DNA of 63,933 bases, the filler included. It is 7 parts of 7 records of this genome, joined end to end, with 100 filler letters (N's around TTAATTAATTAA, not from the genome) between each part and the next. Parts side by side here need not be neighbours in the genome. Positions count along the whole stretch, not along the records: positions 1 to 17,751 come from SRR31156797_12699; 6 more parts are not named here. One strand, given 5' to 3'. The notes under the pieces were generated by a model. The model searched no databases and was not told the origin of the DNA. It saw only the letters and a list, made by a program, of their open reading frames with translations. Of this stretch, positions 15,187 through 46,904 are shown piece by piece (the stretch's first letter is position 1; every line of letters begins with the position of its first letter). Position numbers and translations under genes: made by a program.

Positions 15187-15296
15187 TGTTTTTCCTTATC
15201 TTGGTCTATTATAAGGATTTATTTTTTCAAATGGTAATTTTCTATGTAGATTTCTATTGTTCAAACATGATTGGATAATTGTAAAACGATATTATG

Positions 15297-15325
15297 GTAG
15301 AGACGCAGCAAAGCTGCGTCTCTAC
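15297..15325. repeat. GTAG-type REP-like palindrome
   Basis: GTAGAGACGCAGC-AAA-GCTGCGTCTCTAC, perfect 13-bp stem. Confidence 0.75.
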
Positions 15326-15347
15326 CATCAACATTAAGAGATTCTCT

Positions 15348-16037
15348 ATGACCAAACTCGAAATAACACTCATCAACTACATAGAACAAGCCAACAAGAA
15401 ATGGAATATGTTCAAAACAGGGGAGAAGCTTGTCATCGGAATTTCCGGAGGTAAGGATTCCTTAGCCTGTTTAAAATTATTGTCGCATTTTGATCTTGAA
15501 CTGCTTGCAATTAATGTCGATTTCTTCGGAAAGCACGAACCCAAACTTGAATTGTACTGTTCTAACTATACTGAATATAAGCATGTTAGATCATCCTCTT
15601 TAGAAGACTTAAGCGTTAAAAAAGGCATATGTTATAGCTGTTCCAGGCAAAGAAAGCGTATTTTATTGGAGCAAGCAGAAGCATTTGGCGCATCTAAAGT
15701 TGTTTTAGGACACCATAAGAACGATGTGGTGGAAACTTTGTTGCTAAATCAGATATATTCGCGTGAAATAAGCTCAATGAGCCCTAAACAAGCCTTATTC
15801 AAAGGGCAATATCATGTTATAAGGCCTATGTTTATGATACCTGAACCCATGTTAGTGACTTATATTAAGGAACAAAACATACCAGCTTTTGATCTGAGAT
15901 GCGACCATGAACAGGATTCTAAACGAAAATTCATTAAAGATCTTTTAAAACGGATCCAGGATAATTCTACCGGCATTGACGTCATTGACAACATCTTTTC
16001 ATCCATGTTTCATATCAATGAAGATTTTCTACCATAA
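15348..16037 (+). CDS. ttcA: tRNA 2-thiocytidine biosynthesis protein TtcA-like (PP-loop)
   Basis: SGGKDS, CYSC, GHH..D..ET, IRP; start moved to ATG 15348 past the REP. Confidence 0.78.
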   Translation: MTKLEITLINYIEQANKKWNMFKTGEKLVIGISGGKDSLACLKLLSHFDLELLAINVDFFGKHEPKLELYCSNYTEYKHVRSSSLEDLSVKKGICYSCSRQRKRILLEQAEAFGASKVVLGHHKNDVVETLLLNQIYSREISSMSPKQALFKGQYHVIRPMFMIPEPMLVTYIKEQNIPAFDLRCDHEQDSKRKFIKDLLKRIQDNSTGIDVIDNIFSSMFHINEDFLP

Positions 16038-16226
16038 AAGCCTATCTAATGTATGTCTAAAATTATCTCCGCTTAAAAACGATTTACATTATTTGCTCAA
16101 TTTGTATTTAAAAGTCATAGAATACAATCATGATCTTGTAGAGTTAAGCCCTTAGAAGCAATATTATCATTTAAAGCATAGTTTACTATCAACTGATTAT
16201 CATCCTCTTATGAAATACGAACCGTT

Positions 16227-16243
16227 TTATCCACAAATCCACA
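16227..16243 (+). promoter_or_regulatory. Tandem DnaA boxes (left pair)
   Basis: Perfect TTATCCACA overlapped by AAATCCACA. Confidence 0.7.
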
Positions 16244-16271
16244 TATACCCATAATATATATTATGTAAACC
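16244..16271 (+). other. dif-like Xer recombination site (28 bp)
   Basis: TATACCCATAA-TATATA-TTATGTAAACC; 11-6-11 layout, XerD-type arm TTATGTAAAC; intergenic between convergent genes. Confidence 0.75.
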
Positions 16272-16288
16272 CGTGGATAAGTGGAAAA
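16272..16288 (-). promoter_or_regulatory. Tandem DnaA-box-like pair (right, inverted)
   Basis: Minus strand TTTTCCACT overlapped by TTATCCACG. Confidence 0.6.
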
Positions 16289-16423
16289 CTCAGATAGTAT
16301 TATAGATGGTATGATTTATGTGATTTGGTCTGTGATATTTTCATTGATCACAAAAGATCGTGTCTTAGAATGGAGATTTGTAAATCTTGAGCGAAACCCC
16401 TACCCTGATAATAATTCATATAT

Positions 16424-16452
16424 AAAAAAATGGGGCAAAGATTTTTTGCCCC
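16424..16452 (-). terminator. leuS intrinsic terminator
   Basis: GGGGCAAA...TTTGCCCC stem with A7 tract on plus strand. Confidence 0.7.
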
Positions 16453-18189: not shown

Positions 18190-19506
18190 TTAGTTCTTTA
18201 TCATTGACTGTGACGAAATCTCTTTTTCAGATTTCAGAGTGACTATATAAAGCCCTTTAGCATGATCTCTTAAATCAATCTGGTGTTCATTTGACACTTT
18301 TTCATTTAAAACCACCTGACCTAAGCTATTTGAAATTGTCATCTCATATTCACCATCAACAGAAATGCTAAACAATCCATTGTTAGGATTAGGATATACT
18401 TTAAAACTTTTTTGATTTTCAGAGTTTAAAATACCTGTCTCCTCAACCACATTTACACTATAGTCCTCAACTTCTCCGTAATCGGTATCACCACATGGAG
18501 AACCACAAACGTAATTACTCCTTTTTAATCGTATTCTCATTCTATGAGTACCTATAGGTGCATCATAAGGAATTTGAACCTCAATTGTATGATTTTGTTG
18601 TAATTGACCAATTTTACAGTAAAGTTCTTCTTCTTCATCATTAAAAGAATGACTGTCATCAAAATCAATCCAAATTGATAAATCATCATTTGATTCATTA
18701 AGCTCAGAAATATTGACAGTTACTTGAATAGTTTCTCCTGGCACAACATCAGTTGACAAGTTTGTAAAATCTTCATAACCATTAGAACCTGAACCTGTAT
18801 TATTGATATCTCCCATTTCAATACCATCAATATAGGAGCCGCCACCACCACTGGGACTACAATAATCGCTTGAAACTATACATAAAGATTGCCGTACTGT
18901 AACTATAGCCGTATCTTCCTCATAAGTTTGCATAATATGCCCATCACCTCCAACTTGAGTTAACCAATAAAACCAAACATCTTCATCATCATTTTTCACA
19001 GAGATCCAAAACTCTTCAGGCAAATCTGTAATCTCTTCACTTGGTGTATAATCCCAATAAAAAACTCTGTATTGTGACAAAAAATTAACATCGGTACTGT
19101 TATGCGGGATAATTAATGTATCGGTAAAAATAATATCACCAAGTAATTCGTCCTGAACACCATAAACACTTATTATAAAATTTAAACTATCCTCATTGTT
19201 TAAAGGCATTATATTTCCATTCTGAAATATTCCCTGAAACCCAAAAAAACGCAATGATTGAATGGTTGTAGAATAATCATCAATATAGTGAAATATATTA
19301 TACCCACCATAATCATTAGATTGCAAACCATACCCAGGATTTGTAGGTGCTTGTGAGTATGTAGCCCCTGGCATACAACTAACTGCTTTAGGTGAAGCGA
19401 AGTCAGTATTTTCGATGGCGCCACCAATCTTTGGCATTTGCTGACCGAGTGATTGAATAACAAAAAACACCATGATCAATGCCGTATAAAGCAAATTTCT
19501 TTTCAT
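18190..19506 (-). CDS. T9SS cargo protein with GEVED domain
   Basis: Signal peptide from MKRNLLY (ATG 19506); WIDFD, RMRIR, YGEVEDY; CTD VYPNP.NG...KGLY. Confidence 0.85.
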   Translation of the reverse strand: MKRNLLYTALIMVFFVIQSLGQQMPKIGGAIENTDFASPKAVSCMPGATYSQAPTNPGYGLQSNDYGGYNIFHYIDDYSTTIQSLRFFGFQGIFQNGNIMPLNNEDSLNFIISVYGVQDELLGDIIFTDTLIIPHNSTDVNFLSQYRVFYWDYTPSEEITDLPEEFWISVKNDDEDVWFYWLTQVGGDGHIMQTYEEDTAIVTVRQSLCIVSSDYCSPSGGGGSYIDGIEMGDINNTGSGSNGYEDFTNLSTDVVPGETIQVTVNISELNESNDDLSIWIDFDDSHSFNDEEEELYCKIGQLQQNHTIEVQIPYDAPIGTHRMRIRLKRSNYVCGSPCGDTDYGEVEDYSVNVVEETGILNSENQKSFKVYPNPNNGLFSISVDGEYEMTISNSLGQVVLNEKVSNEHQIDLRDHAKGLYIVTLKSEKEISSQSMIKN

Positions 19507-19735
19507 AATTGTTGCTGTTTTAAGTCTTTTAAATTGAATTTCTAAAATTTTAAAAAGCAAAATTACATATAGTAAAATAAAATTTGTAATTATTTCTATT
19601 CCATTGTATGAGCGGTAGTATTTATTGTATAAACGGTTACAAACAAAAACAATAACTAGTTGTTTAACAGACACAAAAACCTATTAAAGCATCATTTTTT
19701 GTAACAACATGAAAAATATGTTTTATCATAAAAGA

Positions 19736-19903: not shown

Positions 19904-22762
19904 ATGAGGAAACTACTCTCAATTTTATTTCTCAGTGTATTTTCATTGAGTATACTTATCGCAGCACCGGTAAGTAAAGAAACAGCTAAACAGGTGGCTA
20001 TCAATTATTACACAAATTATGCCCCTGCTTCAACTAAAGATTTTTCAATAAAACAATCGTTTGCTTCTGTTGAAAAAGGAACCACTACTTACTATACATT
20101 TGTATTCAATGCAGGTGGTTTTGTAATGGTAGCTGCTGATGATGCAGTAACGCCTATTTTAGGTTACTCTGCCACATCAGAATTTGTTCAGGAGATTGAA
20201 AGTCCTGCTATTAAAGCATGGTTTGCAGATTATGACAAACAAATCAAGCAAATTATCGATCAAAAGATTGATAACAGCACGACACTTCCAAAATGGAACA
20301 ACATCTTAAACAATGAATTTACTAAAAACATGAAAGCAGTAGAACCTTTAGTTGAATCTATGTGGGGTCAATCAGGTGGTTGGGACGATTATGTACCTGC
20401 CGGGACTCCTGTAGGTTGTGTAGCAACTGCTGCTGCCATGGTAATGAAATACCATGAGCATCCATCAAACGGTGTGGGATGGCATGAATATGATCACCCT
20501 ACTTACGGTGAGCAATCAGCTAATTTTGCTGAAACAACTTACGATTATGCCAATATGCCAAACAACTATGGAACAGATGCTTCAGCAATACTTAGTTATC
20601 ATTTAGGAGTAGCTGTGGATATGAACTATAGCCCTGGTGGATCAGGTGCTTTTACTAAAGACCTAACATACGTGTTAGCAAATTATTTTAAATATGACCA
20701 GGGAATTAACTTTGCTGAATTATCCAACTACTCATCAACTGAATGGGAAAACCTTCTTAAAGCAGAATTAGATGCAAGTCGTCCAATGGTATACTCAGGA
20801 AGCGATACTAATTTTGGTGGTCACGCATTTGTTTGCGATGGATATAATGACAGTGATTTGTTCCACTTTAATTGGGGTTGGTCAGGATCAAATAATGGTT
20901 ATTTCGCTATTGGATCATTAAATACTAGTAATGGTAACTTCAATTCAACTAATGGTGTAGTATACAACATTACTCCAGCTGCTACTGGAGAAGAAGAAAT
21001 GTTATGGACAGCTCAATTTACAGACTTCCCTAATGAGTCAACATACCCTGGATACATTTCTGCTGTTGACCAAAATGTAGCCTGGGCAACTGGTCGTGAT
21101 GGTAGCGGAAACAGTGCTGATTATAGAGTGTATACACGCACAAAAGATGGTGGCGCCACATGGGAAAGCAATACAGTAAACTATGGAACAGCCTTCTCAA
21201 TGATTTATGGCTTAGATGCAAACACAGCCTATATTGCAGCCTATGGAACTGGAACTGGAAATAAAATCATTCGCACTACAAACGGTGGAATCGATTGGGA
21301 ACCAATCCTAAGCGGAGCTGGTAGCGCTAGTTTCTTCAATGTAGTTCATTTCTTCAATGAAAATGATGGGTTCGTACAAGGTGATCCTGAAGGTGGCGAG
21401 TACGAATTATATACTACAACTGATGGTGGTGACACCTGGACACGTGTTGATGGTGCTGACATTCCAGATCCTGAAGATGCAAGTGAATATGGTATCGTAG
21501 GTTATTATGATGCTGTTGGAGATAATATTTGGTATACAACCAATAATGGATACATATATAAATCATCTGATAAGGGGTATACATGGACCAAACATCTTAT
21601 TGCTAGTGGATCAGAAACTAATATTGAAATAGCTTTTGCTGCGGATGGCCTTGTTGGTTTAGCAAATTATTACAATGGTACAGATACTGATAAATATAAA
21701 ACTACTGATGGTGGTGAAACATGGTCGGCACTTACACCAACAGGAAACTTCTACGATCAGGGACTTTCTTTTGTTCCTGGAACCACATCCATGTTTGTAA
21801 GTGTTGGATCTGATTATCAAACACCATTTATGGGAGTTTCTTATTCAAATGACGGAGGAGAAACCTGGAATGAGTATGCAGACTATTACACTAATTTCCA
21901 AATGACTGGTCTTGACATGGTAAGTGAAACTAAAGGATTTGCTGGTGATTTTTCAGGAGTTTATTCAAAAGGTATGTTTGTATTAGGAGCTCCTGCATTA
22001 GTTGGAGCTGAATTTACAGCTGATAATGAAGGTATTTGTGTTGGAGAATCAGTAACATTCAGTAATGAGTCATTTGGCACATATGATAATTTACTTTGGG
22101 ACTTTGGCGAAGGAGCAACTCCTGCAACTTCAACGGATGTTAACCCGGGTCCTGTGACTTATTCAACTGAAGGCGAAAAGGATATTACATTAACGCTTTA
22201 TGCTGATGGTGGAGAGTTTAGTGAAACAAAATATGGATTTTTAAAAGTTTATAATGCTCCAACAGCTGACTTCACTTATGCTCCAATGTCTGATGCATTA
22301 TGGTTTAATATAATGTTTACCGGAGCTTCAACAAACACATATGAAGGCGTGAGTCAATTTGATTGGACTTGGGGTGATGGAAACACCACAACAGATGCCC
22401 TTGAAACAATTAATCATATGTACCCTCAAACTTCAGCTGCTTACGATGTTACTTTAACTGTAACTAATGCAACTTGTTCTGATGAAATTACAAAGCAAGT
22501 ATTTGTGAACCCGGTTGGACTTGATGAAGCCAGCAACTTTGATTTTAATGTTTATCCTAACCCAACCAATGGACAGGTAACCATTACAAATGTTGAAAAT
22601 GGAGCAATCTTCATCTATGCAATGAATGGACAATTACTTGAAAATATTAAGGCTACTTCAAACACAATGAAAGTAAACCTAGATAATTACAATTCAGGTG
22701 TTTATGCCATTAAAGTTGTAAGCAATGAAGGTACTGCTGTAAAATATATCACAGTAAAATAA
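19904..22762 (+). CDS. C10 (streptopain-like) cysteine peptidase with prodomain, Asp-box beta-propeller, two PKD domains and T9SS CTD
   Basis: WGQ, GCVATA, GHAFVCDG, HFNWGW; six T/S-x-D/N-G/K-G-x-x-W boxes; WDFGEG and WTWGDG; VYPNPT CTD. Confidence 0.9.
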   Translation: MRKLLSILFLSVFSLSILIAAPVSKETAKQVAINYYTNYAPASTKDFSIKQSFASVEKGTTTYYTFVFNAGGFVMVAADDAVTPILGYSATSEFVQEIESPAIKAWFADYDKQIKQIIDQKIDNSTTLPKWNNILNNEFTKNMKAVEPLVESMWGQSGGWDDYVPAGTPVGCVATAAAMVMKYHEHPSNGVGWHEYDHPTYGEQSANFAETTYDYANMPNNYGTDASAILSYHLGVAVDMNYSPGGSGAFTKDLTYVLANYFKYDQGINFAELSNYSSTEWENLLKAELDASRPMVYSGSDTNFGGHAFVCDGYNDSDLFHFNWGWSGSNNGYFAIGSLNTSNGNFNSTNGVVYNITPAATGEEEMLWTAQFTDFPNESTYPGYISAVDQNVAWATGRDGSGNSADYRVYTRTKDGGATWESNTVNYGTAFSMIYGLDANTAYIAAYGTGTGNKIIRTTNGGIDWEPILSGAGSASFFNVVHFFNENDGFVQGDPEGGEYELYTTTDGGDTWTRVDGADIPDPEDASEYGIVGYYDAVGDNIWYTTNNGYIYKSSDKGYTWTKHLIASGSETNIEIAFAADGLVGLANYYNGTDTDKYKTTDGGETWSALTPTGNFYDQGLSFVPGTTSMFVSVGSDYQTPFMGVSYSNDGGETWNEYADYYTNFQMTGLDMVSETKGFAGDFSGVYSKGMFVLGAPALVGAEFTADNEGICVGESVTFSNESFGTYDNLLWDFGEGATPATSTDVNPGPVTYSTEGEKDITLTLYADGGEFSETKYGFLKVYNAPTADFTYAPMSDALWFNIMFTGASTNTYEGVSQFDWTWGDGNTTTDALETINHMYPQTSAAYDVTLTVTNATCSDEITKQVFVNPVGLDEASNFDFNVYPNPTNGQVTITNVENGAIFIYAMNGQLLENIKATSNTMKVNLDNYNSGVYAIKVVSNEGTAVKYITVK

Positions 22763-46547: not shown

Positions 46548-46599
46548 AATTCGAACTTGATTTTTATTGAAAAGATCAATTAATTTTCTTAAAATTGTA

Positions 46600-46780
46600 G
46601 TGCAATATAGGTTTCCGAGAAGGAAATAATAGGGAATCCTGTTTAAATCAGGAGCTGTCCCCGCAGCTGTAAATTCCGATTCAGTTTTGAATCTGTGTTT
46701 TGAACAAATGTTCCACTGTCCGAAGTATTCAGGATGGGAAGGAGTTCAAAGCCGGAATAAGCCAGAAGACCTGCCTGCAT
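46600..46780 (+). ncRNA. Cobalamin (B12) riboswitch
   Basis: AGGT...AATAGGGAATCCTG-TTTAAAT-CAGGAGCTGTCCCCGCAGCTGTAA...CCACTG...GGGAAGG...B12 box AAGCCAGAAGACCTGCC; P1 closure TGCA...TGCA. Confidence 0.93.
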
Positions 46781-46904
46781 TGATGGATTTTAGCTTTCGG
46801 GCGAGAAAAGCGGGAAGATTCAATTTATTCTTTCTAATTCCGACGCTAGCAGATTCGAACTGCCATATTCGAATCGAAAAAAATTCATAGTAACTGTTTA
46901 CTAT

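Follow-up and report, generated by a model that had tools for sequence, protein, structure and literature searches.

Positions 16227-16288 of a 63,933-bp stretch of DNA from a marine Marinimicrobia bacterium (the window, by which we mean the whole stretch analysed, opening with record SRR31156797_12699) hold two pairs of DnaA boxes that face inward and lie flush against a 28-bp dif site of the 11-6-11 form. The 28-bp core is almost certainly the dif of the chromosome, that is, the XerC/XerD dimer-resolution site at the replication terminus, and DnaA boxes at dif are a feature of one Marinimicrobia (Neomarinimicrobiota/Fidelibacterota) clade. The explanation that we place first, and to which we would give about an even chance, is an ordinary terminus dif combined with a clade-specific accessory module that is predicted to bind DnaA. 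The host lineage was taken from the closest loci in the genome collection, which belong to Candidatus Neomarinimicrobiota / Marinimicrobia (tree label Fidelibacterota).

Architecture of the element

The sequence at 16227-16288 agrees exactly with the original prediction in the string itself, the two box pairs, the 11-6-11 dif, the perfect 16-bp palindrome inside it (CATAATATATATTATG, 16250-16265) and the absence of any gap between box pairs and dif arms on either side (Table 1). Both pairs read 5'-TTATCCACA-3' in the direction of the centre, and on the left the outer box TTATCCACA and the inner box AAATCCACA have one base in common (16235). The two-fold symmetry that had been proposed is one of orientation only: it holds for the direction of the boxes but not for their strength, since the stronger box lies on the outside in the left pair but next to dif in the right pair. 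Two copies of the tandem-pair pattern WTYCACNWWTYCAC are present in the window, each beside dif, against an expectation of 0.14, and 2 of 100 shuffled sequences reach two copies. Single boxes with at most one mismatch show no enrichment over the window as a whole (29 vs 21.8 expected; 29 reached in 9 of 100 shuffles). The statement that TTATCCACAAATCCACA is the sequence of boxes 6/7 of Bacillus subtilis was not confirmed; the string was not found in the literature searched.

Identity and chromosomal position of the dif core

That the core is a real dif, as had been claimed, is borne out by its 11-6-11 form, its single copy, the recombination genes of the relatives and the terminus location in a complete relative. 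The same core lies downstream of the same PP-loop gene in all six of the closest loci. In a scan of 301 genomes of the phylum with a 20-nt core and at most one mismatch, it was present in 63, whereas the reversed pattern used as a control gave 2 matches; each of the 63 core-bearing genomes has exactly one copy and hence no second dif, for which the original prediction had suggested a search. Together with the window these make 64 phylum loci, over which the dif core is invariant. Of five relatives, four have a XerD above the NCBIfam cut-off (362 bits), four have an FtsK that includes the gamma domain, and all five have a further Xer paralogue of about 300 bits; these proteins are encoded in relatives with boxes at dif and in those without them alike. 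Xer recombination at the boxed dif is a prediction. When a 36-nt dif stretch of a relative was compared with Escherichia coli chromosomes, there was one match per genome, at 87-95% identity over about 30 nt. In the one record examined the match lies about 80 nt downstream of hipA, a site that we take to be E. coli dif.

The terminus location comes from the main reference relative, G001, a complete genome in a single contig of 2,335,625 bp that was reached through locus L007 and has one exact copy of the core at 2,335,305-2,335,322. Since the window is collinear with the G001 dif region from 4.4 to 17.7 kb, the two dif loci are orthologous. Genome-wide skew and word counts were taken from 60 evenly spaced 20-kb pieces of G001, the words being counted over the 1.16 Mb sampled. 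GC skew is negative between 39 kb and about 1.19 Mb, turns positive at about 1.2 Mb and remains so to the end (to 2.33 Mb), with its minimum near 1,199,800. With dif at 2,335,305, the two replichores make up 48.6% and 51.4% of the chromosome, and dif is 175/185 degrees from the skew minimum; the skew switches at two points that lie about 180 degrees from each other, with the orthologous dif at the terminus one. In its surroundings the skew is clearly positive up to dif, weakly so for 30 kb beyond it, and negative once about +50 kb is reached.

Polar words lead to the same place. Around G001 dif, GGGGAG occurs 14 times to the left and once to the right on the plus strand, and never to the left and 14 times to the right on the minus strand. 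Thus 28 of 29 copies between -38.6 and +59 kb point toward dif, with the strand switch between -148 and +790. The longer form AGGGGAG is found 65:3 on the leading strand. Words that converge in this way are a signature of a terminus and not of an origin. The checks of GC skew and of polarity of the FtsK-orienting polar sequence (KOPS) type, both named in the original prediction and both run on G001, therefore place the site at ter, opposite the skew minimum. GGGGAG/AGGGGAG is a candidate FtsK-orienting word of the lineage, presumably read by FtsK. Entries for the two words come from G001 pieces L103, L171, L044, L172 and L045 and from positions 16402-16415 of the window. The reverse complement of the word, CTCCCCT, which points at dif, stands about 170 nt to the right of dif in most relatives and has been lost in the window. 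A separate word, GTGAAGAG, has a leading-strand bias of 34:1.

Distribution and conservation of the DnaA boxes

The flanks of the 63 phylum dif loci and of the window, 64 distinct sequences in all, were compared, a box being counted when it had at most one mismatch and lay within 45 bp of dif. There are 19 box matches against about 2 expected from the G001 background (0.032 per 90 bp), and 11 of the 64 loci have at least one. Two of these 11 are single stray matches; the other nine (the window, L001, L002, L003, L004, L005, L123, L118 and L039) account for 17 matches, at two fixed offsets (-17 and 0). In a maximum-likelihood tree built for the protein encoded next to dif, the C-terminal half of leucyl-tRNA synthetase (leuS C-half; 23 rows, loci with at least 225 aligned residues), the nine boxed loci form one group (support 92/88), and boxes are found in 0 of the 14 other rows. 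Within the GTDB family of genome G051 the dif core is present in 26 of 33 genomes, 8 of the 26 being boxed. The core was also found on 50 metagenome contigs, 6 of them boxed, all with the arm variants of the clade, and L210 represents an additional variant. A box beside the XerD arm was absent from five single genomes of other phyla.

With the metagenome variant L210, the boxed-clade set comprises 10 sequences. A perfect outer-left box at -17 to -9 is found in 6 of them, 8 have a box with no more than one mismatch flush against the XerD arm, and the outer-right box retains its GTGGA core in most clade members. The spacing of box, box, dif, box and box, whose conservation had been put forward as a check, is largely kept within the boxed clade, and the arrangement is lacking in the 55 other phylum loci. 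L001 and L003 lack the abutting right box and have instead TTTTCCACA at +6 and TTATCC(A/C)CA at +20, which looks like turnover of binding sites. Mean pairwise identities over the 9-species alignment (Table 1) place the box columns above the surrounding intergenic DNA, an excess that is real and moderate, and by this pattern the boxes appear to be selected. A plain dif whose flanking boxes are not conserved, the outcome that would have spoken against the original prediction, is not what the clade presents: the boxes are retained across it.

The unboxed sisters of the same family (L006, L204, L110, L114-L116, L119, L120, L112 and L113) have conserved dif flanks of their own, with TAAAAACC about 12-19 nt to the left of dif and ACGGATGTGA directly to the right of the XerD arm. 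A factor other than DnaA may occupy the flanks in these lineages. The sister flanks suggest an undescribed accessory element at dif across the family.

Possible roles of the boxes

A canonical DnaA box is in use in the lineage, since three perfect boxes and one with a single mismatch cluster within about 170 bp upstream of dnaA in G001 (at 972 kb). We consider it somewhat probable that the boxes at dif, too, are functional DnaA sites. Because they start 0-1 bp past the conserved part of the arms, DnaA on them would reach into the outer Xer footprints and over the point at which FtsK meets XerD, and the inward orientation of both pairs could allow a DnaA-ATP oligomer to extend over the core. 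From this abutment and orientation we tentatively favour a coupling, or gating, in which DnaA occupancy would affect the access of XerCD and FtsK to dif. Gating of dimer resolution by DnaA was one of three readings in the original prediction and is, among the possible mechanisms, the most attractive. Two forms of it may be imagined: DnaA bound at the flanking boxes might keep dif closed until it is swept off by FtsK, or FtsK might release terminus-bound DnaA at division. More speculative still is the complete scheme, in which DnaA would occupy dif, ATP-form assemblies growing inward on the four boxes would cover both dif and the XerD-FtsK contact, and XerCD and FtsK could act only once DnaA has been cleared, or FtsK arriving at division would itself release DnaA. 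If true, completing one chromosome cycle would feed straight into the licensing of the following one. The idea could be tested with E. coli proteins and strains, although the organisms are uncultured, because both kinds of site are near-universal and the core of a relative is 87-95% identical to the E. coli site.

Several observations weigh against an accessory DnaA module at a terminus dif. The dif core occurs without this box arrangement in 55 other phylum loci, and 44 metagenome contigs share the core but have at least three mismatches at all four canonical box positions. Neither 401 Bacteroidota genomes (3 vs 2 in the control) nor 201 Bacillota genomes (1 vs 3 in the control) show an enrichment of boxes beside the XerD arm. 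Binding of DnaA at the boxes is itself a prediction from sequence. The identity of the inner-left box (0.55) barely exceeds the intergenic background, and part of the retention of the boxes is inheritance, because the clade is shallow and neutral intergenic identity is still 0.35-0.53. Moreover, the constraint on the 20 bp each side of dif predates the boxes, since the unboxed sisters have conserved flanks there, and the inner-right box and the older right-flank motif ACGGATGTGA have GGAT in common. As to the terminus, the GC-skew maximum of G001 is diffuse, within 0-50 kb of dif, and is placed 30-50 kb past it. The window alone cannot show a terminus, because its skew turns positive beyond about 28 kb, its polar words are sparse and mixed, and there is no synteny with G001 beyond 17.75 kb.

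An unlikely yet credible alternative is that the boxes form a terminus cluster that acts on DnaA itself, through titration or control of its nucleotide state in the style of datA/DARS or the B. subtilis clusters, and merely lie beside dif. Four boxes in non-coding DNA outside the origin are what such a cluster would look like, the repeats R1 and R2 (Table 1) flank the module and could bind accessory proteins, and the displacement of boxes by 6-20 bp outward in L001 and L003 indicates that exact abutment is not essential. However, pure titration needs neither fixed spacing nor bracketing of dif nor inward orientation, whereas a box is flush with the XerD arm in 8 of 10 clade sequences and a perfect box lies exactly 8 bp from the XerC arm in 6 of 10; nor is there any such cluster at dif in the 55 other phylum loci.

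It is improbable, in our judgement, that the boxes are without function, having arisen by chance in the ancestor of the clade and been kept by shared ancestry. Their single origin on the tree, the intergenic identity that persists in the background and the decay of the left boxes in 3-4 of 10 sequences are all compatible with this history. What it explains poorly is the arrangement itself, four symmetric inward boxes: tandem pairs, of which chance predicts 0.14 per window, are present in just two copies, both at the flanks of dif. The box columns also exceed the conservation of the surrounding intergenic DNA, lost boxes have been replaced by others nearby, and the 9 species stand on mostly unresolved, star-like branches.

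Distinctly improbable is the possibility that what contacts the flanks is a dif-accessory protein specific to the lineage, or Xer itself over an extended stretch, the likeness to DnaA boxes being coincidental. This would account for the conservation of the same flank positions in the unboxed sisters (as TAAAAACC to the left and ACGGATGTGA to the right), and for the GGAT common to boxed and unboxed right flanks. Against it, the match to the DnaA consensus is 9/9 on the left in 6 of 10 sequences and 8/9 on the right in 8 of 10, the sites that replace lost boxes are again DnaA-consensus 9-mers, and the same 9-mer clusters upstream of dnaA in G001.

The element is not a replication origin. The two other readings of the original prediction, a two-sided origin and a co-located origin and terminus, are not supported by the G001 chromosome, where the site lies away from the GC-skew minimum, at the terminus one of two switch points half a circle apart, and the polar words converge on dif and do not diverge from it. 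Likewise very improbable is a second two-sided origin, or a basal unwinding system (BUS) in which dif would at the same time serve as the AT-rich unwinding element. According to PMC8287927, DnaA-trios of the 3'-GAT-5' type follow the stronger box of a BUS by about 13 bp, and the commonest arrangement is a strong upstream box and then a weak one. The left pair has this order and the core is AT-rich. The order is reversed on the right, however, and dozens of lineages without boxes keep the AT-rich core as their dif. Furthermore, positions 16244-16271 contain no 5'-CTA-3' (3'-GAT-5') on either strand and no run of three relaxed trios, so that DnaA-trios are absent after the boxes on both strands. 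The skew minimum of G001 (about 1.2 Mb) is 228 kb from dnaA. No convincing DnaA-box cluster was found at the minimum, and the tandem-pair search in G001 gave 6 matches vs 3 for the control. A divergent gap at the minimum (1,200,110-1,200,350; L166 12300-12540) has two copies of the palindrome TTTCACGTGAAAC and no clear box cluster.

Scarcely tenable is a polar fork trap comparable to Tus-Ter or RTP-Ter, in which DnaA on the inward box pairs would arrest forks beside dif: box pairs of inward orientation do flank the site of fork convergence, but the boxes lie only 0-17 bp from dif, most of the phylum is without them, TCCAC words have no terminus-directed polarity genome-wide, and we know of no case of DnaA acting as a contrahelicase.

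Two further candidates were rejected. The box core TCCAC as a KOPS-type word is commoner on the lagging strand (leading 576 vs lagging 1030 in the 1.16 Mb of G001). An integrated mobile element exploiting Xer (IMEX) is countered by the single dif and by the synteny of both flanking genes with G001 and other relatives.

Intergenic gap, neighbouring genes and wider window

The flanking genes are convergent, as had been stated, with a TtcA-like PP-loop gene on the plus strand and the leuS C-half gene on the minus strand (Table 1). No dnaA or xer gene is among the 16 open reading frames covered (11.6-22.8 kb, 25.9-38.5 kb and 59.6-62.4 kb). A leuS C-half homologue lies within the flank examined in 42 of 62 phylum dif loci, with dif just downstream of the gene. 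In relatives it is likewise a full-length stand-alone gene, to which the N-terminal half is not adjacent, and this suggests a split leucyl-tRNA synthetase in the phylum.

Table 1. Features of the dif locus in the window, with mean pairwise identity over the 9-species alignment where calculated
Feature	Position	Strand	Identity	Remarks
TtcA-like PP-loop gene	15294-16037	+		left neighbour; syntenic in the clade
R1, degenerate copy of motif GATCGTSGCTTAGAAGC	16143-16162	+		about 100 nt left of dif
Outer-left DnaA box TTATCCACA	16227-16235	+	0.65	perfect consensus; 8 bp from the dif 28-mer
Inner-left weak DnaA box AAATCCACA	16235-16243	+	0.55	2 mismatches; abuts XerC arm; least conserved of the four
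dif TATACCCATAA-TATATA-TTATGTAAACC	16244-16271	+	0.91	XerC arm 16244-16254, centre 16255-16260, XerD arm 16261-16271
Inner-right DnaA box TTATCCACG	16272-16280	-	0.70	1 mismatch; abuts XerD arm
Outer-right weak DnaA box TTTTCCACT	16280-16288	-	0.61	2 mismatches
R2, direct second copy GATCGTGTCTTAGAATGGAG	16356-16375	+		about 113 nt right of dif; overlaps a sigma-70-like -10 match
Intrinsic-terminator-like hairpin	16432-16452	-		downstream of the leuS C-half gene
Stand-alone leucyl-tRNA synthetase C-terminal half, 420 aa	16477-17739	-		leuS_bact profile positions 385-843 of 843
Other intergenic blocks			0.35-0.53	

Of the two repeats in the gap, R1 is found in all 9 boxed loci and in 3 of 20 unboxed ones (mean pairwise identity 0.78), and R2 in 8 of the 9 boxed loci but in none of the 20 unboxed ones, so that the right copy is restricted to the boxed clade. 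Elsewhere in the window and in the sampled pieces of G001 their motif (GATCGTSGCTTAGA...) hardly occurs. It may serve as a promoter -10 element or bind a protein, and R1 and R2 are candidates for sites of accessory proteins. A search of the gap for an RNA gene gave no Rfam match at threshold (best E-value 0.26).

To the right of the leuS C-half gene, two genes (18190-19674, minus strand, and 19904-22762, plus strand) encode secreted proteins with type IX secretion system (T9SS) tails; one has a GEVED domain and the other is a C10 peptidase with an inhibitor I69 prodomain and BNR/PKD repeats. Such T9SS sorting domains had at first suggested a host from the phyla related to Bacteroidota. The window is mostly 35-40% G+C, with blocks of about 25% at 24-32 kb and of 45-51% at 32-42 kb, the latter with genes for a TRAP transporter DctM, a PAD_porph-type deiminase and a CoA-transferase. 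Terminus regions often hold variable, acquired DNA, and the right side of the window (24-42 kb) is probably DNA acquired next to the terminus or a mis-join of the bin. A cobalamin riboswitch (98.8 bits) was found at 46592-46792 on the plus strand.

Comparison with known systems

As a dif, the element is an ordinary member of a known family. It resembles the dif/XerC-XerD/FtsK system of the E. coli and B. subtilis type in its 28-bp 11-6-11 site, found once per chromosome opposite the origin and approached by converging words, and in the XerD, second Xer paralogue and FtsK-gamma encoded by the relatives. It differs in the conserved DnaA boxes that abut both arms in the Marinimicrobia clade.

Accessory DNA beside an Xer core has precedents on plasmids. 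In ColE1 cer and pSC101 psi, about 180 bp of accessory DNA on the XerC side only binds PepA, ArgR or ArcA, and the bound proteins control the activity of the site. The likeness lies in the juxtaposition of Xer core and accessory DNA; here, in contrast, the sites are short, stand on both sides, are chromosomal and match the DnaA consensus.

Clusters of DnaA boxes outside oriC are known as well, namely datA, DARS1 and DARS2 of E. coli and the DnaA-box clusters of B. subtilis. The element shares with them several DnaA boxes in non-coding DNA away from the origin and differs in the fixed spacing to the Xer arms. We know of no datA, DARS or B. subtilis cluster that overlaps dif or sits at the terminus. 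With the BUS of oriC, as described in PMC8287927, the element has in common tandem boxes, the stronger one upstream (in the left pair), that point at an AT-rich stretch; the differences are the lack of DnaA-trios, the location at the terminus and the identity of the AT-rich stretch, which here is dif.

At the level of listings and abstract openings, with supplements outside the search, no description of DnaA boxes at dif, nor of a mechanism that would connect initiator and dimer resolution there, was found in the literature. For the Marinimicrobia there are two by-products: the candidate FtsK-orienting word GGGGAG/AGGGGAG, and a terminus marker in the form of a dif downstream of the leuS C-half gene.

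In summary, the new part relative to all these systems is the conserved DnaA-box bracket around dif. In the usual account dif and DnaA boxes, two of the best-understood DNA sites of bacteria, stand for opposite ends of the chromosome. Boxes kept against both Xer arms at the terminus suggest direct cross-talk of the initiator with the machinery of termination and dimer resolution, and hint that the beginning of the chromosome cycle is connected with its end in a way not yet described.

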